A stretch of 64,000 nucleotides of DNA, taken from contig JAJXYX010000097.1 in NCBI GenBank assembly GCA_021780355.1, positions 1,594 to 65,593 on the forward strand, written 5' to 3'. Below, in pieces: positions 1,879-54,702 of the stretch (its first letter is position 1; the number at the start of each line of letters is the position of its first letter). Both the position numbers and the translations under genes were made by a program. The notes beneath the pieces are model-generated. The model saw only the letters and a list, made by a program, of their open reading frames with translations. It did no database searches and was not told where the DNA came from. This stretch comes from a bacterium. Lineage in GTDB: Bacteria; Chlamydiota; Chlamydiia; Chlamydiales; SM23-39.

Positions 1879-2148
1879 ATTTTAGATGTGTTGACCTATG
1901 AAAAGTTCAAGGAAATGTATCTAAATAGGTAAATAATTCCAATCAAAAATTTTGTTCGCAAAAAAAAGCTGCAGCCAACCTTTTTTTACCTCGAATCTTA
2001 GAAAAAATCTTACATTAAATAGGTGTCTGGCTGGCTCAATTTACTTAAATTTCTTATAAAGAAGGTTGTAAAAAAAATTTTTATGTTTTAGCCTTGGAGA
2101 GGCTTCGTGCTGACGTGGCCTTTTCTTAAGTTAAAAACAGGAAATTTT

Positions 2149-4212
2149 ATGATGAAAAACCATCTTCCGCATTTTATCTCATTGATGTTAGCCTTTGCTC
2201 TTCAGGCGAGTGCAGAATCTTCTTCTGTAAGACTTTCTGGACACGTCCCTACTAAGGCGGTGTCCCATGCAACCCATTTGGAGCGTTTAGATAGTGCCGT
2301 TGAAGTGCCTATTACGTTTGTTTTGCCGTTGCGCAATCAAGAGGCATTGGAGGCCTTAGTGCAGCGTATGTACGACCCATCTGATGAAGAGCATTATGGC
2401 AACTATCTGACACCTGAAGAATTTGCCGAGCAGTTTGCTCCGACTCAAGAGGACTATGAACAAGTTGCAGCCTATGCGCAGAGTTTAGGTTTGACTGTGA
2501 CGGGAACTCACGCTAATCGTACATTACTGAATGTTTCAGGTCCTTCAGCCGCCTTAGAATCTGCTTTTAATTTGAAGTTTCATCACTACCAAAAACATAA
2601 CGGCCAGGTCTTTCATGCTCCCGACAATGAACCTGAAGTTCCTTCTGCGATTGCCTGTGTGATTCATGGGATTGTTGGTTTGGACAATCATGCTTTGCGG
2701 CATACGTACAATCGGCATAAAGAGATGGGAGAAGCTGTCAGAGTGTCTCATTCGACTTCTTTAGCGCATCCTTCAGGGCCTGGAGGCGGCTATTCTCCCA
2801 ATGATATTTTGACCGCTTACAATCTCAATCGAGTGTCTGTCGATGGATCCAATCAGATCATTGCTCTGTTTGAACTGGGAAGCTATCTTGCAAGCGATAT
2901 CGATCAATATACGAACCATTTTGGTTTGCCCTCTGCCAAATTGACCAATATTTTGGTCGACGGCGGATCGAAAAGCGGCATTGATCCTGAAGTGACACTA
3001 GATATTGAGCTAGCTGTAGCGCTCGCTCCTGCTAGTCAGATTTATGTTTATGAAGGTCCCAATTCGGACCAGGGAGTTTTGGATACCTATAATCGCATTG
3101 CGACAGATAACCTGGCTAAACAAGTCAGTACATCTTGGGGTTTGGGGGAAAGTTTCTCAAGCGCTCAATTTCTTCGCGCTGAAAATGCCATTTTTCTTCA
3201 GATGGCAGCTCACGGACAAACCATTTATGCGGCAGCTGGCGATAGCGGCGCTTATGATGAATATCCGAATAATGTCTCCTTGGTTGTCGACGATCCGGCT
3301 TCTCAGCCCTACGTAGTTGGCGTAGGAGGGACGAGATTGACAGTGAATGCATTGACAGGCGCCTATGGTAGTGAATCTGTTTGGAATGATGGTATGGGCA
3401 ATGGTGCAGGCGGCGGAGGCATTAGCGGTTTTTGGCCGATCCCTTCATGGCAGAAAAATGTTGCCGGCGTGGCTTCGACAACCCATCGAAATGTTCCCGA
3501 TGTCGCCTTGAATGCGGATACCAATACAGGCTATTCGATTTATTATAATGGACAGTGGACAATCTACGGCGGCACTAGCTGCGCAGCGCCTCTTTGGGCA
3601 GCCTTTACGGCTCGGGTCAATCAAGAGCGGCTGGCTCAGCAAAAATCTACTTTAGGTTTTGCAAATCCCTTTCTTTATTCTATTGGAGTTGGATCATCTT
3701 ACACGAATGATTTCCATGACATCACCTCGGGTGATAATTTATATTACCACGCTCATGCGGGCTATGATAATGCCTCAGGATGGGGATCGTTTAACGGAGC
3801 TCCTTTATTGGCCAGTTTGACGCAGTCTATCCAGGCGGTTTCTCATTCTTTGCCAGTTTTGGCTGTGTCGATGACTCACGCTGGTTCTATTGTCAAAGGG
3901 AGAAGCGCTAGTTACACAATCGCTGTCGCTAACCAAGGCGACATTTCCACTTCGGGTTCTGTCACTGTAAGCATCGTCCTTCCGACAGGTCTTACTTATA
4001 AATCTTTCCAAGGTGCGGGGTGGACGTTTAATCAACGCACTTTGACTTGCAGCCGGAGCAATGCTCTGGCAGCAGGCTCAAGCTATCCTCCTATTACTTT
4101 GGGAGTCTATGTAAGCCGTAATGCGCCAAGTTCTGTTAGCTTAACCGCGATAGCATCAGGCGGGGGAGCTACTGCCAGCGCGAGCGCTACAGATGTTGTG
4201 AACATTCATTGA
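2149..4212 (+). CDS. Secreted sedolisin (peptidase S53, pro-kumamolisin-like) with C-terminal DUF11/CARDB-like domain
   Basis: The track ORF starts at GTG 2107; in-frame ATG 2149 gives the signal peptide MMKNHLPHFISLMLAFALQASA. A pro-kumamolisin activation domain is present (RNQEALEALVQRMYDPSDEEHYGNYLTPEEFAEQFAP). S53 catalytic residues appear in context: EVTLDIELAVALAP (Glu/Asp), AAAGDSGAYD (oxyanion Asp), GGTSCAAPLWAA (Ser). The last ~110 aa (SYTIAVANQGDISTSGSVTVSIVLPTGLTY...PPITLGVYVS) look like a DUF11-type beta-sandwich. Confidence 0.85.
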   Translation: MMKNHLPHFISLMLAFALQASAESSSVRLSGHVPTKAVSHATHLERLDSAVEVPITFVLPLRNQEALEALVQRMYDPSDEEHYGNYLTPEEFAEQFAPTQEDYEQVAAYAQSLGLTVTGTHANRTLLNVSGPSAALESAFNLKFHHYQKHNGQVFHAPDNEPEVPSAIACVIHGIVGLDNHALRHTYNRHKEMGEAVRVSHSTSLAHPSGPGGGYSPNDILTAYNLNRVSVDGSNQIIALFELGSYLASDIDQYTNHFGLPSAKLTNILVDGGSKSGIDPEVTLDIELAVALAPASQIYVYEGPNSDQGVLDTYNRIATDNLAKQVSTSWGLGESFSSAQFLRAENAIFLQMAAHGQTIYAAAGDSGAYDEYPNNVSLVVDDPASQPYVVGVGGTRLTVNALTGAYGSESVWNDGMGNGAGGGGISGFWPIPSWQKNVAGVASTTHRNVPDVALNADTNTGYSIYYNGQWTIYGGTSCAAPLWAAFTARVNQERLAQQKSTLGFANPFLYSIGVGSSYTNDFHDITSGDNLYYHAHAGYDNASGWGSFNGAPLLASLTQSIQAVSHSLPVLAVSMTHAGSIVKGRSASYTIAVANQGDISTSGSVTVSIVLPTGLTYKSFQGAGWTFNQRTLTCSRSNALAAGSSYPPITLGVYVSRNAPSSVSLTAIASGGGATASASATDVVNIH

Positions 4213-4221
4213 ATAATGACT

Positions 4222-4360
4222 GTAAGCGTTCAGGCAATGCTGTCAACTTAAGGTCTCCGCCCCATAGGCCTCAACCTATCAAAAATTTGCGATAAATTTT
4301 TGATAGGTTGAGGTCTATGGGGCGGAGACCTTAAGTTGACACCATGGCTTGAACGCTTAC
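4222..4360. repeat. 139-bp near-perfect palindrome (singleton in this window)
   Basis: Left arm GTAAGCGTTCAGGCAATGCTGTCAACTTAAGGTCTCCGCCCCATAGGCCTCAACCTATCAAAAATTTGC. The right arm is its reverse complement with a few mismatches (…TTGATAGGTTGAGGTCTATGGGGCGGAGACCTTAAGTTGACACCATGGCTTGAACGCTTAC). It lies between two convergent genes, 10 nt after the sedolisin stop. Confidence 0.9.
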
Positions 4361-4571: not shown

Positions 4572-4587
4572 TTGTGTTCCGTTTATT

Positions 4588-4659
4588 TATACCGTTCGTG
4601 ACTCAAGAATCGGCTATTGGACGGCTTCAAAGCCGATTCTTGAGTCAGGAATGGGTATA
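4588..4659. repeat. Family-1 palindromic element (TATACC...GGTATA), internally deleted 72-bp copy
   Basis: TATACCGTTCGTGACTCAAGAATCGGCTATTGGACGGCTTCAAAGCCGATTCTTGAGTCAGGAATGGGTATA. GACTCAAGAATCGGCT pairs with AGCCGATTCTTGAGTC. The termini match those of the copies at 10331 and 21372. Confidence 0.9.
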
Positions 4660-4846
4660 TATAGAAAGTTTTTTTCTCTCTCATGCATCGCTTCGAAGAT
4701 TTTTTCACATTGCTTCAAGGAGATATTTTTTGCAACTTGAACTGTATGCAATATATCTTTAATGTGTATACCAAACAAAGCTGAAGAATCGGCTTATAGA
4801 CAGGTCCTTCAGCTTTCTTCGATATATCGACAACAATGAGAGGCTT

Positions 4847-5578
4847 ATGAGTTATCAAAGTACACTGTCATTTTGGAAAAAAAAATCTCTGAAAGATCTG
4901 TTGCCTCCTCCTGTGAAGGCGGAACACGGCGAATATTCGATGATCTTATCTGCCCGTGATTGTCCTGCTGTCTTGACGCCAGAGCTGCTTCAAGTGAGCT
5001 TGAAGGCGATAGAGTACGCTGCCAGTGTCGATTTGGGGGAGCTCCGAGAGAGGAATGAACAGGCAAAAAGGTATGCCGATCTTTGGCCTGGAGAGCATTA
5101 CCGTTTGTTGGCGGGGTTTATGCTTGCTTTGAAACCGAAAGTTGTGATTGAAATAGGAACTTCCACGGGGCTTTCGGCTTTATGTTTGAAGCGTTATTTG
5201 CCCTCTGATGGAAAAGTTGTGACGTTTGATATTGTGCCTTGGCAGCAGTATCCAGACACGCTATTTAAGCCAGAGGATTTTGACGACAAGCTCGTACAGC
5301 ATGTAGCTGATTTAAGCCTTGCATCCTCTATGGATTTTTATGCTTCTTCCATTCAAGAGGCTGGACTCATTTTTATCGACGCTTCCCACGACGGAGATTT
5401 GGAAGAGCGCCTTTTAGAAAACCTAAAAAAAATTCCGTTTTCTCACAAAGTATTTTGTGTGCTTGATGATATTCGCGTATGGACCATGCTAAGTATGTGG
5501 AGAAGTATCGAGCTACCCAAAATCGATTTGACGTCATTTGGCCATTGGTCTGGCAGCGGAGTGATAGAACTGCGCTAG
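4847..5578 (+). CDS. Class I SAM-dependent methyltransferase (O-methyltransferase/Methyltransf_24-like)
   Basis: 243 aa, with GAGAGG RBS 4-9 nt upstream of the ATG. Motif I is VVIEIGTSTGLSALCL, followed by an acidic residue after beta-2 (VVTFDI) and IFIDASHDGD, typical of small Rossmann-fold SAM methyltransferases. Confidence 0.7.
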   Translation: MSYQSTLSFWKKKSLKDLLPPPVKAEHGEYSMILSARDCPAVLTPELLQVSLKAIEYAASVDLGELRERNEQAKRYADLWPGEHYRLLAGFMLALKPKVVIEIGTSTGLSALCLKRYLPSDGKVVTFDIVPWQQYPDTLFKPEDFDDKLVQHVADLSLASSMDFYASSIQEAGLIFIDASHDGDLEERLLENLKKIPFSHKVFCVLDDIRVWTMLSMWRSIELPKIDLTSFGHWSGSGVIELR

Positions 5579-16418: not shown

Positions 16419-16544
16419 TCAAAGGGCTCGCGCCCTTTGATGTCCCTTCTTATTTTTGTGTTTTTCCAAAAGAAAAATCAAAAATGGTTTCTTCGAAAGA
16501 AGAACTCCAAAAAATAGAAGGGATTTCAAAGGGCGCGAGCTCGT
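16419..16544. repeat. Palindromic element related to family 2 (126 bp)
   Basis: The left arm TCAAAGGGCTCGCGCCCTTTGATGTCCCTTCTTATTTTTG pairs with the right arm AAAAAATAGAAGGGATTTCAAAGGGCGCGAGCTCG. The left end carries an hp2-like local hairpin, CAAAGGGC-TCGC-GCCCTTTG. It starts 11 nt after the doxX stop. Confidence 0.8.
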
Positions 16545-16552
16545 TTTACTTT

Positions 16553-16865
16553 GGGGGGCTTCGCCCGAAACCCCATTAAGGGACTGTCTCTCCTTATACC
16601 CAACGTGATTCAAAATTTGGCCGCTAGACGGGTTCAAAGCGCAAAAAATCGATTGTTACAAAAGGGGATTGTATTGATTTAATACTACCCCCCTTTGTAA
16701 CAATCGATTTTTGGCAGCTTTCAATCCCGCCTAGCGGCCAAATTTTGAATCACGTTGGGTATAAAACCCCGTTTTCTTTTTTTTTCTATATTTAATAAAA
16801 AACCCAAGGATCAAGGGGTTTTAAGGGGCGATAGCCCCTTAATGGGGTCCGGGGCGAAGCCCCGG
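16553..16865. repeat. Family-2 element (subtype a) interrupted by a family-1 element
   Basis: The left arm GGGGGGCTTCGCCCGAAACCCCATTAAGGGACTGTCTCTCCT (16553-16594) and the right arm ...GGGGTTTTAAGGGGCGATAGCCCCTTAATGGGGTCCGGGGCGAAGCCCC (ending at 16865) are complementary. They are separated by the complete element at 16595-16763. Confidence 0.85.
16595..16763. mobile_element. Family-1 palindromic element, full-length subtype-2 copy (169 bp), nested inside a family-2 element
   Basis: TATACCCAACGTGATTCAAAATTTGGCCGCTAGACGGG-TTCAAAGCGCAAAAAATCGATTGTTACAAAAGGGG-ATTGTATTGATTTAATACTA-CCCCCCTTTGTAACAATCGATTTTTGGCAGCTTTCAATCCCG-CCTAGCGGCCAAATTTTGAATCACGTTGGGTATA. The nesting indicates past mobility. 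There is no coding capacity, so it is non-autonomous. Confidence 0.8.
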
Positions 16866-27076: not shown

Positions 27077-27250
27077 TATATAGTGCTTCCGGTTGAAAGG
27101 CACCCAATCTTTTCGTTTTTAACAGTTCAATTTTCCAGCTATTTTGGCAGGGTTACTATTCGAAGATCATAGGACCCTGCCAAAATAGTTGGAAAATTGA
27201 ACTGTTAAAAACGAAAAGATTGGGTGCCTTTCAACCAGAAGCGCTATATA
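27077..27250. repeat. 174-bp near-perfect palindrome flanked by TATATA (singleton)
   Basis: TATATAGTGCTTCCGGTTGAAAGGCACCCAATCTTTTCGTTTTTAACAGTTCAATTTTCCAGCTATTTTGGCAGGGT...ACCCTGCCAAAATAGTTGGAAAATTGAACTGTTAAAAACGAAAAGATTGGGTGCCTTTCAACCAGAAGCGCTATATA. Confidence 0.9.
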
Positions 27251-28753: not shown

Positions 28754-28819
28754 GTAGATCCTCTTTCTAATATTTCCAAGTTTCCCATGCAGGGCCTGTG
28801 CCCTGCATCAAAAAAAATA

Positions 28820-28867
28820 GGATTCCAAAGGACGATAGTCCAATGGTTAGGTTTGGGGCAAAGCCCC
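28820..28867. repeat. Family-2 element, single arm (subtype a)
   Basis: GGATTCCAAAGGACGATAGTCCAATGGTTAGGTTTGGGGCAAAGCCCC in the nrdA-nrdB spacer, ending 2 nt before the nrdA stop codon. Confidence 0.75.
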
Positions 28868-28869
28868 AA

Positions 28870-32103: not shown

Positions 32104-32187
32104 TGTCTTTACCTCTTTGGCGCAAAAAAACTTAAGGTCCAGCGCAGTGTTTTGGTTTGTAAATAACTGGTTAATTTCTTATGTCAC

Positions 32188-32203
32188 CTACCAGATGTGG
32201 TAG
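32188..32203 (-). promoter_or_regulatory. Candidate NrdR box 1
   Basis: CTACCAGATGTGGTAG is 14/16 self-complementary. It has the spaced core C-A-AT-T-G of the NrdR consensus as I recall it (acaCwAtATaTwGtgt). It lies 85-100 nt upstream of the nrdA ATG. Confidence 0.55.
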
Positions 32204-32219
32204 GTTTTCTTGGTTTACA

Positions 32220-32235
32220 TAACTATATATTGTAG
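32220..32235 (-). promoter_or_regulatory. Candidate NrdR box 2
   Basis: TAACTATATATTGTAG fits aCwAtATaTwGt at every conserved core position. Its centre is 32 bp from the centre of box 1, about three helical turns, which is the usual tandem NrdR-box spacing. Confidence 0.6.
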
Positions 32236-32363
32236 TTGTGGGTTTCTGGTCTAGAAAAAAAAACCGCGATTGCATACCCACTTACACAGAGTCGTTAAGG
32301 GTAGCAAAAATCATCAAAACATGCGATTTTTTTGTCGCGAATGAAGTTTGTGCGCTCTCCATC

Positions 32364-32488
32364 TTGGGGCTTCGCCCCAAACCCCATTAAAGGACTGTCG
32401 TCCTTTAAAATCCCGTTTTTTTTATATAAAATCAAAAAGGATTTTAAAGGACGATAGTCCTTTAATGGGGGGTGGGGCGAAGCCCCAA
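32364..32488. repeat. Family-2 composite-hairpin element, complete subtype-a copy (125 bp)
   Basis: TTGGGGCTTCGCCCCAAACCCCATTAAAGGACTGTCGTCCTTTAAAATCC-CGTTTTTTTTATATAAAATCAAAAA-GGATTTTAAAGGACGATAGTCCTTTAATGGGGGGTGGGGCGAAGCCCCAA. Confidence 0.9.
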
Positions 32489-32565
32489 CATGAAATGATG
32501 AGGTATTTCTAGGCGTTGCGAATTTTAGCTTGGGATGCGGGAGGGTTTGTGTTATTATGGGGATT

Positions 32566-43220: not shown

Positions 43221-43350
43221 TAAGGGCTTCGCCCTTAAGAACCCACCAAAGGGCTGTCGCCCTTTGGAATCCCCTTTGATTTTATATAAAAAACAATAGG
43301 AGTCCAGAGGACGAAGTCCTTTGGTGGGTTGTTAAGGGCGAAGCCCTTAA
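43221..43350. repeat. Family-2 composite-hairpin element, complete subtype-b copy (130 bp)
   Basis: TAAGGGCTTCGCCCTTAAGAACCCACCAAAGGGCTGTCGCCCTTTGGAATCCC-CTTTGATTTTATATAAAAAACAATA-GGAGTCCAGAGGACGAAGTCCTTTGGTGGGTTGTTAAGGGCGAAGCCCTTAA, in the divergent lptF / tilS spacer. Confidence 0.9.
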
Positions 43351-47611: not shown

Positions 47612-47627
47612 GGGCTCTCCTCAAAGC

Positions 47628-47672
47628 GGGGCTCCGCCCCGCCCCCGCCAAAGGACTCAATCTCTGGACTCC
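47628..47672. repeat. Family-2 element, single arm (subtype c)
   Basis: GGGGCTCCGCCCCGCCCCCGCCAAAGGACTCAATCTCTGGACTCC, 17 nt after the ftsH stop. Confidence 0.75.
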
Positions 47673-47688
47673 TGCTCTTTTTTTGATA

Positions 47689-47715
47689 ATCTTCCGAGAC
47701 GGAAGATTTATTTTT
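47689..47715 (+). terminator. Rho-independent terminator after ftsH
   Basis: ATCTTCCG-AGA-CGGAAGAT followed by TTATTTTT. Confidence 0.7.
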
Positions 47716-48319: not shown

Positions 48320-50131
48320 TCAAGATCCCTTGGCAAAGCGGCCGAATTTGGGGTTGACGAGTGTAATCAAATCATGAGATTGCATGACGATCGACTCGGT
48401 GAGTAATCCGCAGTTGAAAGCAGCTCTTTCATGACTCACGATCTGCTCATCGAAATAAGTATCGAGGTTTAGCAGTTGCCCAAAAGGAGGGATGCCTCCA
48501 ATCTTGAGTCCATAGCGCTCTTCTAAGACGGCTGGATCTTCGAACTCACATTTTTCACCGACTGCTTCTGCAACGGCCTTCATGTCGAGTTTTAAATGAG
48601 AAGGAATATTGAATTGGTAGTTTTTCTTAGTCGACTTGCCTCGAAGAACTAACGCTTTAACCCCTTCTGCCATTGAAGTGCCTCGCACGCGAGCAGAATC
48701 TTCGGATGTTGGCGTCGCTTCGTGCTGCTGATGATCAAATGGCATCTTGTGCAAATGTAAAAGCCGGATGATCTCGTTGCGCACAGTTTCGGGGCCGAAA
48801 AAGAATTTAGCCTTAATCCGATTCCCTGCGATCCTTTTCGTATCGGAGGGGAAAAGCGAAGCTTCTCGAATATTTCTCAGTTTCAAAAGCGTCATCGTGA
48901 GCCTTTCAAGGCCCATCCCAAAGCCTCCATGCACCGGCATGCCGTATTCAAAAATGCTTAGATAATCAGGAAAGTTGGCCGGATCCATCTCTTTGCCGCG
49001 GATCCCTTCTAGCATCGAAGCATACGTATGTCGTCTTTGCCCGCCCGATGTAATCTCCGTGCCCGCGCAAAGTAAATCAAAGGTATTTGTCAGCGTAGGA
49101 TCTTCTTCTTTAGGATAAGCATAGAAAGGTCTCTTTTCTGCCTTCCAATCGGTAATAAAGACAAGATCTGTTCCCTTCTCTTCTCGCGCCCATGCACATA
49201 AATCTCTTTCAGCTGCAGGACTAAGATCAGGTTCTCCTTTTTCGTCAACTCCTGTTCTTTTAAAATACAGTTCCTGCGCCTCTTTAAACGTAAGCCGTGG
49301 AAAAGGGACATCTTTTGGCGCCAAAACAATCTTTCCGCCTAGTACATCAATTTCCGCCTGAGCATGCTGATGAAGGTATTCTAAAATGAACTTAACGCAG
49401 CCTTCTTGAATATCTAAAATCTCATGCCAGTGGGTAAAAAATCCCATTTCAAATTCAAACTGTTTCCCTTCTGATAAGTGTCTTGTCGTCTGGGAAGGTT
49501 CCGCTCTAAAAAAAGGCATCAGCGCAAAGACCCTCTCATTCACTCCAACCATAATCTGTTTATACAGCTGGCTGCTTTGGGCCAATGTCGCTGTATATCC
49601 AAAATAATCGACATTAAAAAATTCCGCTCCCCCTTCCGAAGAAGCTCCAATGATATTGGGCGCAAAATACTCCACTGCCTGCACATGATCATGCATATAC
49701 AAACGGTAAGCATGAACAATTTCCGCCTGAATTCTAAACACCGCCGCCAGCTCTCTATTCCTAAGCGAAATCGGCCGATGATCCAAAATCACTTCTAAAT
49801 CGCTTCTAATCTGAGGTTTATAATATTCAATCGGAGGCACTGCATGAATAGGATTTTCCACTTCAATTAAAGCGTCGACAATTTCCATCCCTTGATTTGC
49901 TTCTCTCGACTCAATCACCTTGCCTTTCACAGACAAAATCGAACCGGGCTGCAAATTCTCTATCTTTTTGCACTCTTCCTTATCTTCCACCACAATCTGC
50001 ATAAATCCAGATCGGTCGCGTACAATTAAAAAGGTAAGTTTACCAAATGAGCGAGTCGTATTCAGCCAACCTTTCACTAGCACAGGTTGACCTACATGTT
50101 GAGACAATTGTCGAGCTAAAATTCTTTGCAT
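48320..50131 (-). CDS. aspS: Archaeal/eukaryal-type (type 2) aspartyl-tRNA synthetase fused to a C-terminal YbaK/ProX-like aminoacyl-tRNA deacylase domain
   Basis: The start is set at MQRILARQL (50131). The 43 upstream in-frame codons of the track ORF are translated repeat sequence. The protein has an OB-fold anticodon domain (VLVKGWLNTTRSFGKLTFLIVRDRSGFMQIVV), QSSQLYKQ (the AspRS QSPQ-type motif), motif 2 FRAEPSQTTRHLSEGKQFEFEM and motif 3 GGFGMGLERLTMTLL, with no GAD insertion. The last ~165 aa (GVKALVLRGKSTKK...GLKIGGIPPFG...AAFNCGLL) look like a YbaK-family domain. Confidence 0.8.
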   Translation of the reverse strand: MQRILARQLSQHVGQPVLVKGWLNTTRSFGKLTFLIVRDRSGFMQIVVEDKEECKKIENLQPGSILSVKGKVIESREANQGMEIVDALIEVENPIHAVPPIEYYKPQIRSDLEVILDHRPISLRNRELAAVFRIQAEIVHAYRLYMHDHVQAVEYFAPNIIGASSEGGAEFFNVDYFGYTATLAQSSQLYKQIMVGVNERVFALMPFFRAEPSQTTRHLSEGKQFEFEMGFFTHWHEILDIQEGCVKFILEYLHQHAQAEIDVLGGKIVLAPKDVPFPRLTFKEAQELYFKRTGVDEKGEPDLSPAAERDLCAWAREEKGTDLVFITDWKAEKRPFYAYPKEEDPTLTNTFDLLCAGTEITSGGQRRHTYASMLEGIRGKEMDPANFPDYLSIFEYGMPVHGGFGMGLERLTMTLLKLRNIREASLFPSDTKRIAGNRIKAKFFFGPETVRNEIIRLLHLHKMPFDHQQHEATPTSEDSARVRGTSMAEGVKALVLRGKSTKKNYQFNIPSHLKLDMKAVAEAVGEKCEFEDPAVLEERYGLKIGGIPPFGQLLNLDTYFDEQIVSHERAAFNCGLLTESIVMQSHDLITLVNPKFGRFAKGS

Positions 50132-50154: not shown

Positions 50155-50460
50155 TTGGGGCCCTGCCCCAAACCCCGCCAAAGGACTTCGTCCTTTGGAA
50201 TCCTGAGTTTGTTGAGGGATTATAGCACGATGGGATTTTCTTGACTGTTAGTTTATGCAAGACTTCGTCTTGTATAAACTAAAAAAATAAGCAGATTTCA
50301 AAGAACTTCGCCTTGAAATTCTGAATTTGTTAAGGGATCATGGCATGAGGGGATTTTCTTAACTATTAGTTTATGCAAGACTCCGTCTTGCATAAACTAA
50401 AAAAAACAAATAGGATTCCAAAGGACGAAGTCCTTTGGCGGGGCATGGGGCAGCGCCCCA
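50155..50460. repeat. Family-2 element (subtype c), expanded copy with 2 x 120-bp internal tandem duplication
   Basis: The arms are TTGGGGCCCTGCCCCAAACCCCGCCAAAGGACTTCGTCCTTTGG and CCAAAGGACGAAGTCCTTTGGCGGGGCATGGGGCAGCGCCCC. Internal units start at 50179, 50299 and 50419 (CAAAGGAC / CAAAGAAC / CAAAGGAC), giving a 120-bp period. Each unit carries GGGATTTTCTT(G/A)ACT(G/A)TTAGTTTATGCAAGAC-TYCG-TCTTG(T/C)ATAAACTAAAAAAA. Confidence 0.85.
50219..50227 (-). promoter_or_regulatory. Extended -10 box (TGCTATAAT) inside the expanded repeat, facing aspS
   Basis: The minus strand reads CGTGCTATAATCCC. No good -35 is present. A transcript from here would start about 85-90 nt upstream of the aspS ATG. The second repeat unit has a degenerate version (TGCCATGAT). 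Confidence 0.3.
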
Positions 50461-50480
50461 TAAAAAACCCCGCGAATCGA

Positions 50481-53848: not shown

Positions 53849-54330
53849 ACGATCCTTTTCTTCGAGATGTTCAATTTATGAAAGAAGCCTTGAAAGAGGC
53901 TTTGAAAGCCTATGAAAAAGATGAGGTCCCTGTCGGCGCTGTCTTGGTTTTTGAAAATCGGATCATAGCGAGAGGGCACAATCAAACGGAGCTTTTGCAA
54001 GATGCGACGGCTCATGCAGAAATGCTCTGTTTGACTGCCGGAGCCTCCCAGCGTAATAATTGGCGGCTAACGGACACGACTCTCTATTGTACGCTAGAGC
54101 CTTGCTGCATGTGCGCTGGAGCTTTGCTCTCTTCTCGAGTAAAAAGGCTTGTCTGGGGAGCCAAAGACCTTCGAGTCGGCGCCAATGGCAGTTGGATTGA
54201 TGTCTTTTCTCAAAAACATCCCATGCATGAAATCGAAATCCTTTCCGGCGTCTTAGAAGAAGAATCGGCGGCTCTTTTGAAGAAATTTTTCCAGCAAAAA
54301 CGAAAAAAGGCCATCCTCCATGAATGTTGA
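53845..54330 (+). CDS. tadA: tRNA adenosine(34) deaminase
   Basis: 161 aa with the CDA zinc motifs HAEMLCL and PCCMCAGAL. Confidence 0.9.
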   Translation: MNDPFLRDVQFMKEALKEALKAYEKDEVPVGAVLVFENRIIARGHNQTELLQDATAHAEMLCLTAGASQRNNWRLTDTTLYCTLEPCCMCAGALLSSRVKRLVWGAKDLRVGANGSWIDVFSQKHPMHEIEILSGVLEEESAALLKKFFQQKRKKAILHEC

Positions 54331-54556
54331 AGTGCAGCTTTTGCAAGAACTCATTGAAGGGCAAAGAAAAAAAATGCTGGCGTCAGCTCAGCGTATAGTG
54401 CCCCACGTAACACTCGACGATCTGTTGCAGCCCAATGACTTTCCTGAGCTAGAGCTGCATCCCCATTTTCGCTATGAAGAGGGAATTTTAGACGGTCTCC
54501 AGGTAGCCTACACAGCTCTTTTAGCTCATCAGCAAGATAGAAAAGTTGACTCTTGA
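54320..54556 (+). CDS. Small hypothetical protein (78 aa)
   Basis: The ORF overlaps the tadA end by 11 nt, consistent with translational coupling. No motif recognised. Confidence 0.45.
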   Translation: MNVEVQLLQELIEGQRKKMLASAQRIVPHVTLDDLLQPNDFPELELHPHFRYEEGILDGLQVAYTALLAHQQDRKVDS

Positions 54557-54560
54557 ATCG

Positions 54561-54702
54561 CCAAATGAAGGGCTCCGCCCTTAGACCCGCCAAAGGGCTG
54601 TCGCCCTCTGGACTCCCATTTGTTTTTATATAGATAAATAAAAGGGGTTCCAAGGGGACTTTGTCCCCTTGGCGGGTCGAAGGGCGGAGCCCTTCATTTG
54701 GG
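54561..54702. repeat. Family-2 composite-hairpin element, complete subtype-c copy (142 bp)
   Basis: CCAAATGAAGGGCTCCGCCCTTAGACCCGCCAAAGGGCTGTCGCCCTCTGGACTCCC-ATTTGTTTTTATATAGATAAATAAAA-GGGGTTCCAAGGGGACTTTGTCCCCTTGGCGGGTCGAAGGGCGGAGCCCTTCATTTGG. Confidence 0.9.

Follow-up and report, generated by a model that had tools for sequence, protein, structure and literature searches.

A polar two-hairpin repeat at gene ends in a Chlamydiota genome, with near-identical copies in other bacterial phyla

Introduction

ERIC/IRU, the Correia elements of Neisseria and the BOX elements of Streptococcus pneumoniae are imperfect palindromes of 100–150 bp that lie in transcribed intergenic regions. They combine modular ends with a variable middle, and their larger variants result from internal insertions. 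They are thought to affect mRNA stability and processing and sometimes to serve as promoters, and they are confined to a genus or family.

The REP superfamilies are more widespread. Members from 8 phyla have been described, which form inverted dimers and for the most part are found downstream of ORFs (Di Nocera et al., 2013, PMC3733652). Their defining tag is an unpaired GTAG or CGTC (TGTC/CCTC) at one end of the hairpin; they typically exceed 100 copies per genome and lie between tandem or convergent genes. Double-palindromic inverted repeats border some Y1 transposase genes, and the CGTC REPs are without a known transposase (PMC3733652).

Here we describe a family of hairpin repeats in a 64-kb stretch of chlamydial DNA (hereafter the window), which a sequence-only reading had compared with REP/BIME/ERIC-type elements, and we follow the family into sister genomes and other phyla.

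Results

The repeat is built from a polar arm of ~50 nt, in which hp1, ACCCC, hp2 and GGAAWCC follow each other in fixed order. The first hairpin, hp1, has the formula N2-GGGGC-N3-GCCCC-N2', with a G+C stem of 5–7 bp and a 3-nt loop; its bottom strand includes GCGAAGC, known as a motif that folds into a very stable DNA mini-hairpin. The second, hp2, has the formula YY-AAAGGAC-N3-4-GTCCTTT-RR, with a 9-bp stem and a loop of 3–4 nt. In Chlamydiota arms, GGAAWCC is followed by a T-rich tract. A complete element consists of an inverted pair of arms flanking an AT-rich or variable centre.

Covariance model R1, run on the window with filters off, detected 14 arms at 9 intergenic loci (Table 1), a density of ~1 arm per 4.6 kb, and 12 of these 14 arms had E-values between 4e-15 and 2e-7. 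Inverted repeats were found at 32360-32492, 54561-54701, 11622-11712, 43221-43349, 50156-50460 and 16555-16863. The hairpin repeat family proposed for these coordinates is real. The string GGGGCTTCGCCCC, with ≤2 mismatches allowed, matched 12 times against 1.2 expected, a number reached in 0 of 100 shuffles.

The earlier estimate was about ten copies in 64 kb; the palindrome at 16419-16545 that it listed as related is only weakly so. Two further assignments held in part. The locus at 11622-11712, read as a complete copy, retains the first hairpin of the module and departs from it in the second. At 34573-34789, read as a one-armed copy, there is indeed one arm, but a 168-bp palindrome belonging to another family (~34603-34770) interrupts the loop of hp2.

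Table 1. Copies of the two-hairpin repeat and a related palindrome in the 64-kb window
Feature	Span	Arms (strand)	R1 score (bits)	Structure and site	Fold
Complete element	32364-32488	32364-32414 (+), 32438-32488 (-)	73.3, 68.9	AT-rich centre TTTTTTTTATATAAAATCAAAAA; inverted repeat I3 (64-nt arms, 88% complementary); divergent nrdA/pssA spacer	RNA, -97 kcal/mol, z -16.5
Complete element, AGGGC/GCCCT subtype	43221-43349	43221+/43298-	61.6, 58.3	hp2 cores unlike between arms, AAAGGGC vs AAAGGAC; divergent lptG/tilS spacer	-87.8 kcal/mol, z -12.9
Complete element	54561-54702	54567-54617 (+), 54644-54695 (-)	60.9, 49.7	palindrome extends outward; begins 4 nt past stop of 78-aa ORF 54320-54556	-99.6 kcal/mol; local hp2 hairpins branch from long stem
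Expanded element	50155-50461	50155-50204 (+), 50412-50461 (-)	73.2, 71.6	centre of 207 bp with ~120-bp unit duplicated in tandem and a degenerate internal hp2; repeats I6, I14; 19 nt past pnp stop, upstream of aspS	
Interrupted complete element	16553-16865	16553+ (weak), 16815-16865 (-)	22.3, 67.2	the other palindromic family of the window is nested inside at 16594-16764 as a TA-flanked copy and interrupts the element; repeats I9, I10, I13; right arm 18 nt past stop of DEAD-box helicase gene	
Divergent variant	11622-11712	11623+/11647-	8.5, 22.1	hp1 kept, TTAAGGGC...GCCCTTAA type, second (inner) hairpin different; repeat I8 (42-nt arms, 95% complementary); end overlaps stop codon of ABC-F ATPase gene 11709-13493 (-) (Pfam)	
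Single arm, sense	28819-28869	(-)	61.6	abuts nrdA stop (28870), then T8	
Single arm, sense	47626-47673	(+)	45.8	14 nt past ftsH stop; hp2 degenerate	
Single arm, sense	34571-34789	(+)	39.8	repeats I5, I7	
Weakly related palindrome	16419-16545		18 (partial matches)	hp2-like hairpin AAAGGGCTCGCGCCCTTT at both ends; repeat I12; 10 nt past doxX stop	

All nine loci in the window are intergenic or overlap the last codons of a gene, with four in tandem, three in convergent and two in divergent spacers. The family fills 8 of the 21 spacers of ≥100 bp, or ~25% of the intergenic DNA, which is less than the "most of the longer spacers" that had been claimed. The gene names given in the earlier reading are upheld by Pfam (DoxX, the large subunit of RNR, FtsH, PNPase, PssA and AspRS, and a TilS-like PP-loop protein).

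Across the loci analysed we counted 41 paired elements, with centres of 6–382 nt, and ~64 of 146 arms were single. Centres can be enlarged by tandem duplication or by the insertion of other small palindromic elements. The centres of elements 32364-32488 and 43221-43349 contain weak promoter-like matches. In the JAUXXF elements, the variable central hairpins were considered as native bidirectional terminators and rejected, as they are preceded by a T run (5') and followed by an A run (3'), which is the reverse arrangement.

Both hairpins covary. Among 146 model-aligned arms, double changes occurred in 13 of 16 pairs, and 227 cells carried a double change, compared to 51.6 in shuffled alignments (0 of 500 reached 227) and ≤40 in slid controls. 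At pair 3-15, for instance, 124 arms have GC and 12 have AU, and at pair 34-61 AU is found in 106 arms and GC in 25. In the 103-arm set, which was selected by a pattern that fixes the 5' halves alone, 95% of the cells were paired, and 82 carried a double change, compared to 23 in shuffled alignments and ≤19 in slid controls. This covariation supports the description of the arms as two self-complementary modules, and the paired stem changes that had been noted (GGGGC/GCCCC vs AGGGC/GCCCT, and GGAC/GTCC vs GGGC/GCCC) recur in the alignment. The non-Watson-Crick cells on the sense strand of the arm comprised 17 G.U, 68 A.C and 58 others; the lack of G.U enrichment fits pairing that takes place in DNA or on both strands.

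Partner arms often differ in their hp2 core, AAAGGAC/GTCCTTT being combined with AAAGGGC/GCCCTTT or with AAGGGGAC/GTCCCCTT. Since these unlike cores are each internally complementary, local hairpins are maintained, and not the long foldback alone. Complete elements fold at -88 to -100 kcal/mol, with z-scores for the long hairpin of -12 to -17. Covariation and fold scores agree with the proposal that an element can adopt one long hairpin or, alternatively, a series of small local ones. Partner arms had the same hp1 loop in 15 of 41 pairs against 10.8 expected (p = 0.06), and in 1 of 13 pairs from Alphaproteobacteria. This excess is not significant, and hence we do not claim concerted evolution of the arms.

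In Chlamydiota and Clostridia, the arms lie 0–30 nt past stop codons, in sense orientation. According to placement statistics based on crude ORF calls, a sense-strand stop codon lay ≤40 nt from hp1 in 38 arms at Chlamydiota loci and a start codon in 8, in line with the expected enrichment at gene 3' ends. Single arms were likewise biased in orientation (23 sense, 6 antisense, p = 0.002). The three single arms of the window all run with the direction of the gene, and its GC skew is nearly of one sign (2 of 32 bins slightly negative). Arms of Alphaproteobacteria showed no such bias.

Comparison with related Parachlamydiales genomes revealed that some copies are kept, and that there are reciprocal empty and filled sites. 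The element at 32364-32488 has a diverged orthologue in L092 and L093, and the single arm at 28819-28869, between nrdB and nrdA, is found at the same place in both; L097 and L098 lack the element as well as the arm. L098 carries an arm after its M32 peptidase gene, where the corresponding two genes of the window overlap. Similarly, the element at 54561-54702 is missing from the sister genome L089 (CTOTU1218, flanks with 86% DNA identity), which shares the structure of the expanded element, at 1739-2044, at the site orthologous to 50155-50461. In a species with 92% identity, the lptG/tilS spacer measures just 54 bp, as read from gene coordinates alone; the same spacer in L092 was dropped as an empty site, since synteny is broken there. 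The arm at 34571-34789 encodes the last 10 codons and the stop codon of rmuC, and its counterpart in L092 (12035-12085) is an intact arm of 71 bits; rmuC terminates within the arm in two species. Some species, and not others, have other small palindromes within their arms. Between the elements of the window and L092, an identical loop change was observed in both arms. Hence, orthologous spacers of sister genomes contain copies in some cases and lack them in others, and the reciprocal empty and filled sites indicate that the family is or was mobile.

Contrary to what had been assumed of the family, the two-hairpin module is not restricted to one lineage. Besides three further MAGs of Chlamydiota, it was found in Acetobacteraceae (Asaia and others), in Methylobacterium, in Myxococcota MAGs and in Clostridia. 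Individual carriers are Asaia sp. BMEF1 (NZ_CP157575.1), A. krungthepensis, Methylobacterium sp. Leaf456 and the MAGs GCA_964440435.1, JAUXXF01 and DAINNB01. Carriers include isolate genomes, among them a complete Asaia chromosome, and one Asaia locus (L064, 7401-7789) holds an array of three elements. A pattern of the arm with 21 fixed and 2 half-fixed bases matched at least 89 stretches of 596 Gb, for which uniform base composition predicts ~0.07 matches by chance. The module is nearly unchanged between unrelated phyla, with a patchy distribution and lineage-specific sub-signatures.

Searches for a named counterpart were negative. Rfam, searched at gathering and E-value thresholds, gave no matches in the window, only spurious below-threshold matches of the element to generic long-hairpin miRNA models, and nothing at the arms of 19 loci from four phyla. 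A tRNA/tmRNA scan yielded nothing. A blastn search (word size 11, query 32355-32497, E ≤0.01) of 5,426 complete E. coli genomes, a set in which REP and ERIC would be represented, returned no match, and viral contigs scanned with the arm pattern gave 0 matches. No description of the module was found in the open-access literature, searched by topic and by sequence strings. The suspicion that the family is undescribed is in line with Rfam and the open-access literature, the two resources against which it was checked.

Discussion

On balance, we favor the interpretation that the hairpin repeats are of the REP/BIME/REPIN kind, neither coding nor autonomous, and that they represent a superfamily undescribed in the libraries searched. 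Such elements may spread through a single-stranded DNA hairpin intermediate, with an enzyme acting in trans and encoded elsewhere. For the mobilising enzyme, the best precedent would be a RAYT- or TIRYT-type HUH/Y1 transposase. Pfam detected neither an HUH/Y1 nor any other transposase in the 64-kb window, and when ~700 kb of loci rich in the elements were searched by tblastn for IS200 TnpA and E. coli RAYT, nothing scored below E = 0.3. However, these query sequences were approximate, and such genes are usually single-copy, so that this negative result carries little weight either way. Copies could persist because insertion between a stop codon and a terminator does the least harm. The arm would then be transcribed within the 3' end of the mRNA, where it probably acts as a barrier to 3' exonucleases or as a weak terminator, and inverted pairs would form long double-stranded RNA hairpins, potential substrates of RNase III. 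The orientation bias is not predicted by purely selfish DNA, which hints at a role at the RNA level or at insertion coupled to transcription.

A bolder extension of this interpretation, which we put forward tentatively, is that the module represents a third, unnamed, pan-bacterial REP-like superfamily, conserved near base-for-base in at least four phyla, namely Chlamydiota, Alphaproteobacteria, Myxococcota and Clostridia, and recognised by a conserved factor, which would make it directional past stop codons. Between phyla the stems are conserved in sequence and not in pairing alone, which suggests sequence-specific recognition by some factor. This factor might be a horizontally moving enzyme with transcription-coupled insertion, or a universal host component acting at mRNA 3' ends.

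An alternative explanation might be that the arm is a conserved cis-acting RNA module of the 3' UTR, for instance an unusual terminator, an mRNA stabiliser or a hairpin near the stop codon that tunes the termination of translation, and that it is retained by selection and repeated owing to its function and not to mobility. The sense arms shortly past the stop codons of Chlamydiota and Clostridia and the covariation of both hairpins would fit such a role, and so would the tract after chlamydial arms, with 63% T compared to 28% in the background and ≥9 T in 14 nt for 57 of 91 arms. In two scanned regions covering 8 of the 14 window arms, two arms passed a lenient terminator rule (hp2 plus tail). 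Yet, the T tract begins 6–7 nt beyond the hp2 stem and is missing in Alphaproteobacteria and Clostridia, whereas the U tract of an intrinsic terminator follows its G+C-rich hairpin within 0–2 nt. The terminator scan also identified a separate canonical terminator-like hairpin (47688-47708) after the ftsH arm. Moreover, arms also form inverted pairs and are found upstream of genes in divergent spacers (32364, 43221), the sense strand shows no excess of G.U pairs, orthologous genes of sister species manage without an arm, no Rfam family matches, and near-identical stems between phyla are not expected from selection on structure only. We therefore consider this explanation unlikely.

Still less probable, in our view, is that the elements are ordinary MITEs, derived by deletion from an insertion sequence with a DDE transposase and mobilised by it in trans, with the arms as terminal inverted repeats. 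The inverted-arm elements are 90–310 bp long and intergenic, contain nested other elements, vary in presence between sister genomes and are patchy among taxa, all of which a MITE would explain. Conversely, the direct repeats flanking six elements were no better than those of shuffles (p = 0.17-0.87), and a comparison of filled and empty sites at 54561 gave only a gapped, non-significant resemblance and no target duplication. Many arms are single with a preferred orientation, partner arms often belong to different subtypes, and covarying hairpins within each arm would be needless for a duplex end bound by a protein. An all-against-all blastp of the proteins beside the arms at 89 loci returned only housekeeping orthologues and Ser/Thr kinases as recurrent neighbours; the genes between distant inverted arms were housekeeping, kinase or AbiE toxin-antitoxin genes. 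Plasmid and phage collections, queried with the consensus arm and an Asaia element, contained no match.

That the repeats are independent palindromic terminators, chance G+C hairpins or artefacts of metagenome assembly or binning is hardly credible, for although the window and most of its chlamydial relatives are metagenome assemblies and hairpins are common after genes, the pattern far exceeds its chance expectation, the 3' halves of the hairpins, which the pattern leaves free, nevertheless pair in 95% of cells, and copies occupy orthologous sites in independent sister assemblies and are present in isolate genomes.

About a quarter of the window's non-coding DNA consists of hairpin repeats like these. 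The genomes of environmental chlamydiae are considered compact and poor in repeats, and a mobile family of hairpins whose copies differ from one sister species to the next is therefore useful as a strain marker and for the study of genome dynamics. The arms also remodel gene ends, as seen in the C-terminus and stop codon of rmuC, and such repeat families break metagenome assemblies. The wider point is that a near-identical non-coding module of 50 nt recurs in unrelated phyla, and that it lies past stop codons in a consistent place and direction. By what means REP-like elements spread when they lack a dedicated transposase, and what role they have, is a long-standing question, and since the Asaia and Methylobacterium carriers are culturable, it can be approached by experiment.

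The sequence-only reading had noted a resemblance to REP, BIME and ERIC elements. This is borne out for the kind of element, its placement at gene ends and its alternative foldings, but the module is not a member of these named families. Like ERIC/IRU, Correia and BOX, it forms intergenic imperfect palindromes that are modular and enlarged by internal insertions. Correia elements have a TA duplication, in contrast to the elements described here, and ERIC shows no sequence similarity to the module, as judged from the E. coli genome collection.

The resemblance to REP/BIME is closer. These are also small extragenic hairpins, mostly downstream of ORFs, often arranged as inverted dimers that fold into larger structures, with mosaic clusters possible, and they occur in several phyla (Di Nocera et al., 2013, PMC3733652; Nunvar et al., 2010, PMC2817692). 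However, a REP is a single palindrome of 20–40 bp, whereas the module is a fixed pair of different hairpins spanning ~50 nt. By itself, hp2 resembles a REP unit (8–9-bp stem, 4–5-nt loop), but the module always carries hp1 as well. The consensus of the 103 and of the 146 arms has no unpaired GTAG or CGTC tag: in both, the flanks of hp1 are variable and those of hp2 are ACCCCRYY and GGAAWCC, and where CGTC occurs, in some copies, it lies only at the junction of the hp2 loop and stem. Unlike E. coli REPs, to which it is unrelated in sequence, the module shows an orientation bias of its single units that is related to transcription.

REPIN-RAYT and TIRtron systems share with the module two inverted hairpin units with a short spacer and without target duplication, the occurrence of singles, dimers and clusters, and differences in presence between related genomes. 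They differ in that no RAYT or TIRYT gene was found near the copies examined and the GGGGWSAS motif is unmatched. Furthermore, vertical inheritance and lineage specificity have been described for REPIN-RAYT systems, whereas the module is nearly identical between phyla.

Repeat family in the window

The family is built from a polar arm of about 50 nt with two hairpins, hp1 and hp2, which stands alone (single arm) or as an inverted pair around a centre (complete element). The string GGGGCTTCGCCCC, with at most two mismatches, occurred 12 times in the window against 1.2 expected. An inverted-repeat scan recovered all complete copies listed by the sequence-only reading. A covariance model of the two-hairpin arm (R1), built from an arm alignment annotated with this structure and run with filters off, found 14 arms at 9 loci. 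E-values were 4e-15 to 2e-7 for 12 of these arms, and the positions agreed with those noted earlier to within a few bases. The window, part of an ENA metagenome contig of 120,839 bp, contained no tRNA genes, and no Rfam family at gathering score.

Features in the window and in stretches fetched from other genomes (L-numbers)
Stretch	Positions	Strand	Feature
Window	32364-32488		Complete element: TTGGGGCTTCGCCCCAAACCCCATTAAAGGACTGTCGTCCTTTAAAATCCC, AT-rich centre, then the arm's reverse complement
Window	11622-11712		Divergent copy, loosely related: hp1 kept, inner hairpin different
Window	16419-16545		Loosely related element: only an hp2-like hairpin in common with the family
Window	4585-4660		Second palindromic family
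Window	10325-10500		Second palindromic family
Window	16594-16764		Second palindromic family, inserted in an arm of the studied family
L095	~2110-2225		Related second-family insert, splitting the rmuC arm
Window	34603-34770		168-bp palindrome, ends AGGAACCTATCC...GGATAGGTTC
L027 (another Chlamydiota MAG)	~5270-5390		Element similar to the 168-bp palindrome, GAACCTATC...GATAGGTTC, breaking an arm's hp2 region
Window	4222-4360		Near-perfect palindrome in a large spacer, arms 67 nt (94% complementary)
Window	27077-27250		Near-perfect palindrome in a large spacer, arms 77 nt (96% complementary)
Window	13490-15835	-	781-aa protein, two tandem D-Ala-D-Ala ligase units; N and C domains each match twice
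Window	32186-32240		Upstream of nrdA: conserved palindrome ACCTACCAGATGTGGTAGGT plus ACATAACTATATATTGTAGTTG; kept in L092, L093, L097 and L098
Window	34801-36639	-	LRR and NEL (novel E3 ligase) effector gene, between rmuC and a miaB-like gene
Window	48320-50131	-	Aspartyl-tRNA synthetase, C-terminal YbaK-type editing domain (Pfam tRNA_edit, 513-633)
Window	50210-50400	-	Duplicated unit of the pnp-aspS element, with TGCTATAAT (TGTTATAAT in L089)
L098	5374-9765		RNR large subunit, 1,463 aa vs 1,077 aa in the window; weak LAGLIDADG match
L049 (Acidisphaera sp. L21)	2000-2050		Arm within an rRNA operon, between a tRNA gene (2075-2147) and the 23S rRNA gene
L056	6054-7754		AbiEi/AbiEii toxin-antitoxin pair (type IV) enclosed by two inverted single arms

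Structure of the arm

From 5' to 3', the arm consists of hp1 (N2-GGGGC-N3-GCCCC-N2'), a linker (A/G-ACCCC-R) and hp2 (YY-AAAGGAC-N3-4-GTCCTTT-RR), and hp2 is followed by GGAAWCC. In Chlamydiota, T makes up 63% of the 14 bases after the arm, compared with a background of 28%.

Both hairpins are kept up by compensatory change. In 103 arms gathered with a pattern that fixed the 5' halves only, 95% of cells in the free 3' halves were paired. The four variable pairs had 82 double-change cells; shuffles gave 23, and sliding the partner column gave at most 19. Among 146 arms found by R1, double-sided changes affected 13 of the 16 pairs, with 227 double-change cells against 52 after shuffling (none of 500 shuffles reached 227) and at most 40 in slid controls. 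The paired-change subtypes described earlier, GGGGC/GCCCC versus AGGGC/GCCCT and GGAC/GTCC versus GGGC/GCCC, belong to this covariation.

Partner arms within one element often have unlike hp2 cores, each self-complementary, and in the minimum-energy fold of the copy at 54561 local hp2 hairpins branch off the long stem. Hence, the small hairpins are conserved structures and not just parts of a long foldback. Complete elements folded as long hairpins reach -88 to -100 kcal/mol (z -12 to -17), so that both of the folds proposed earlier, one long hairpin or a row of small ones, find support. Non-Watson-Crick cells on the sense strand of the arm comprised 17 G.U, 68 A.C and 58 others; the lack of G.U enrichment is only a hint, from few independent events, against selection purely on the sense RNA.

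Placement at gene ends

With window genes defined by Pfam matches and ORFs, all nine loci were intergenic, in four tandem, three convergent and two divergent spacers. Of the 21 spacers measuring 100 bp or more, the family occupies 8, and it makes up about 25% of all intergenic sequence; the earlier statement that it occupies most of the longer spacers was thus too strong. The distance from stop codon to arm was 0 nt for nrdA, 4 nt for a 78-aa ORF, 14 nt for ftsH, 18 nt for a helicase gene and 19 nt for pnp, while the stop codon of the ABC-F gene lies inside an element. The arm even supplies the last ten codons and the stop of rmuC, in the window and in L092 alike. In the fetched Chlamydiota loci, crude ORF calls placed a sense-strand stop codon within 40 nt of hp1 in 38 arms, and a start codon in 8.

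Single arms were mostly in sense orientation (23 sense, 6 antisense, p = 0.002). Chlamydiota (16 sense, 2 antisense) and Clostridia (4 and 1) account for most of this bias, and the few single arms of Alphaproteobacteria (1 and 3) lack it. All three single arms of the window, two on the plus and one on the minus strand, point along the gene. Since GC skew has one sign nearly throughout the window (2 of 32 bins slightly negative), polarity tracks transcription and not replication, as far as three arms can tell.

Canonical terminators were considered and rejected as an identity for the arms, the T tract beginning 6-7 nt past hp2. A lenient terminator rule picked out 2 of 8 arms in two scanned regions, and a distinct terminator-like hairpin lies downstream of the ftsH arm.

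Gain and loss between relatives

The sister-genome comparison called for earlier used orthologous loci fetched along a gradient of PssA identity and searched with R1; close homologues of the window PssA are labelled Parachlamydiales or Chlamydiales. Some copies were kept and others varied in presence. Three copies are retained in L092 and L093 (96-97% identity): the arm between nrdB and nrdA, the arm in which rmuC ends and, upstream of pssA, a complete element that has diverged. This rmuC arm is intact in L092, carries the foreign 168-bp palindrome in its hp2 loop in the window, and has a different nested insert in L095 (89%). L089 (CTOTU1218) has the expanded pnp-aspS element, internal duplication included, and lacks the 54561 element. 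The element upstream of pssA in L096 (87%) belongs to another subtype and has a hairpin at its centre. L097 and L098 (84-86%) lack the nrdB-nrdA arm and have an element-free nrdA-pssA spacer of 233-235 bp, compared with 462 bp in the window. Conversely, L098 has an arm 6 nt past the stop of an M32 peptidase gene, at a site where in the window and L092 two convergent genes overlap; both C-termini differ there. In a contig of 92% identity, known from gene coordinates, the lptG-tilS spacer is 54 bp versus 191 bp in the window. Such gains and losses in both directions show a family that is mobile or was so until recently. Flanking direct repeats did not exceed chance.

Other palindromes also occur. 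The second family (TATACCGTTCGTGACTCAA...GGTATA, with an inner GCCAAAAATCGA... hairpin) has TA on both sides of its nested copy, like an IS630/mariner-type MITE. The family of the 168-bp palindrome may target the hairpins studied here. The two near-perfect palindromes have no sequence relation to the studied family.

The LRR-NEL gene is present in L092 and L093 and absent at this position in relatives of 92%, 87% and 84% identity, so that it is a recent insertion adjoining an arm. The aspartyl-tRNA synthetase with its YbaK-type aminoacyl-tRNA editing domain is an unusual fusion. Upstream of it, TGCTATAAT reads as a putative extended -10 box toward aspS, which a simple promoter scan did not flag as it has no -35 box. 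The motifs upstream of nrdA look like NrdR boxes, and the RNR of L098 probably contains an intein, judging from its LAGLIDADG match.

Distribution beyond Chlamydiota

An exact scan with GGGGCNNNGCCCCNNNCCCCNYYAAAGGAC, one genome per species, matched at least 89 stretches, against about 0.07 expected in 596 Gb by our own calculation with uniform base composition. Carriers among the matches listed were three Chlamydiota MAGs (JAUXXF01, DAINNB01, JAZKAZ01), Asaia isolates (one a complete chromosome), other Acetobacteraceae, Acidisphaera, Methylobacterium, G+C-rich Myxococcota MAGs and several Clostridia MAGs; in all of these the unconstrained half of hp2 was complementary. The Clostridia hp2 stem is longer by further paired bases. 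Acetobacteraceae elements share the build of the window copies, an arm and an inverted arm around a short centre, and have the same two subtypes; one Asaia locus has a 140-bp array of three elements. Viral contigs, phage records, plasmids and E. coli gave no arm matches.

The sequence after hp2 is lineage-specific: Chlamydiota have GGAATCCT and the T tract, Acetobacteraceae GGAAACCTG, a Myxococcota MAG GGAATCCTCAAT and several Clostridia arms GGAWYCCCAARAACTTT. Such signatures point to a module that was amplified within each lineage once introduced.

At the JAZRVP loci of one Myxococcota MAG (L003, L069, L083 and others), a longer repeat unit of about 200 nt (...GGAATCCTCAATATTTTTAGATAGTATAAGCC...GCCGGGGCC...GGCTCTCATCAATTTCTGCC) has the arm as its 5' portion. 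A second hp1 unit often stands in tandem in front of the arm, and no Rfam family matches. At L056, each arm flanking the toxin-antitoxin pair follows the stop codon of the outer neighbour gene.

Spread, possible roles and relation to known repeats

Three observations, namely hairpins kept at the DNA level, no target duplication and hairpins nested within hairpins, lead us to infer that copies spread via a single-stranded hairpin intermediate. The enzyme that handles it would act in trans, from a gene located elsewhere. The search for a transposase of any kind was negative in the window, among recurrent neighbours of the arms and in a rough tblastn of about 700 kb of element-rich loci. Copies would survive where they do least harm, between stop codon and terminator.

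Both the bias in orientation and the T tract of chlamydial arms suggest that arms, once inserted, may also act in the transcript. By analogy with REP biology, they might block exonucleases or terminate transcription weakly, and a pair of inverted arms might provide RNase III-type substrates. Arms inside the ribosome footprint of the stop codon may affect translation termination. A purely functional 3'-UTR RNA motif is nevertheless disfavoured: inverted dimers exist alongside single arms, some arms sit in 5' spacers, there is no excess of wobble pairs, and orthologous genes manage without the arm. Spread as a DDE-type MITE is likewise disfavoured, given the missing target duplication, the oriented single arms, partner arms of unlike subtype and self-complementary ends. 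Chance or assembly artefact is excluded.

No Rfam family matches the repeat. Its characteristic strings had no match in the open-access literature searched, and a search by topic there found no description of such repeats in Chlamydiae or Acetobacteraceae. The family, its two-hairpin polar unit, the stop-codon placement and the presence in environmental chlamydiae are new; the crossing of phyla is already known for REP superfamilies.

REP-type repeats are small hairpins that form inverted dimers, lie downstream of ORFs and fall into superfamilies across phyla (PMC3733652). Some Y1 transposase genes are flanked by double-palindromic repeats, and the CGTC superfamily has no known transposase (PMC3733652). 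The resemblance to REP/BIME/ERIC elements suggested by the sequence-only reading therefore stands for these general features but not for the defining tags, since the family lacks the GTAG, CGTC or GGGGWSAS tags of named REP families. We class it with the REP/BIME/REPIN repeats, as a new form whose unit is a polar double hairpin.
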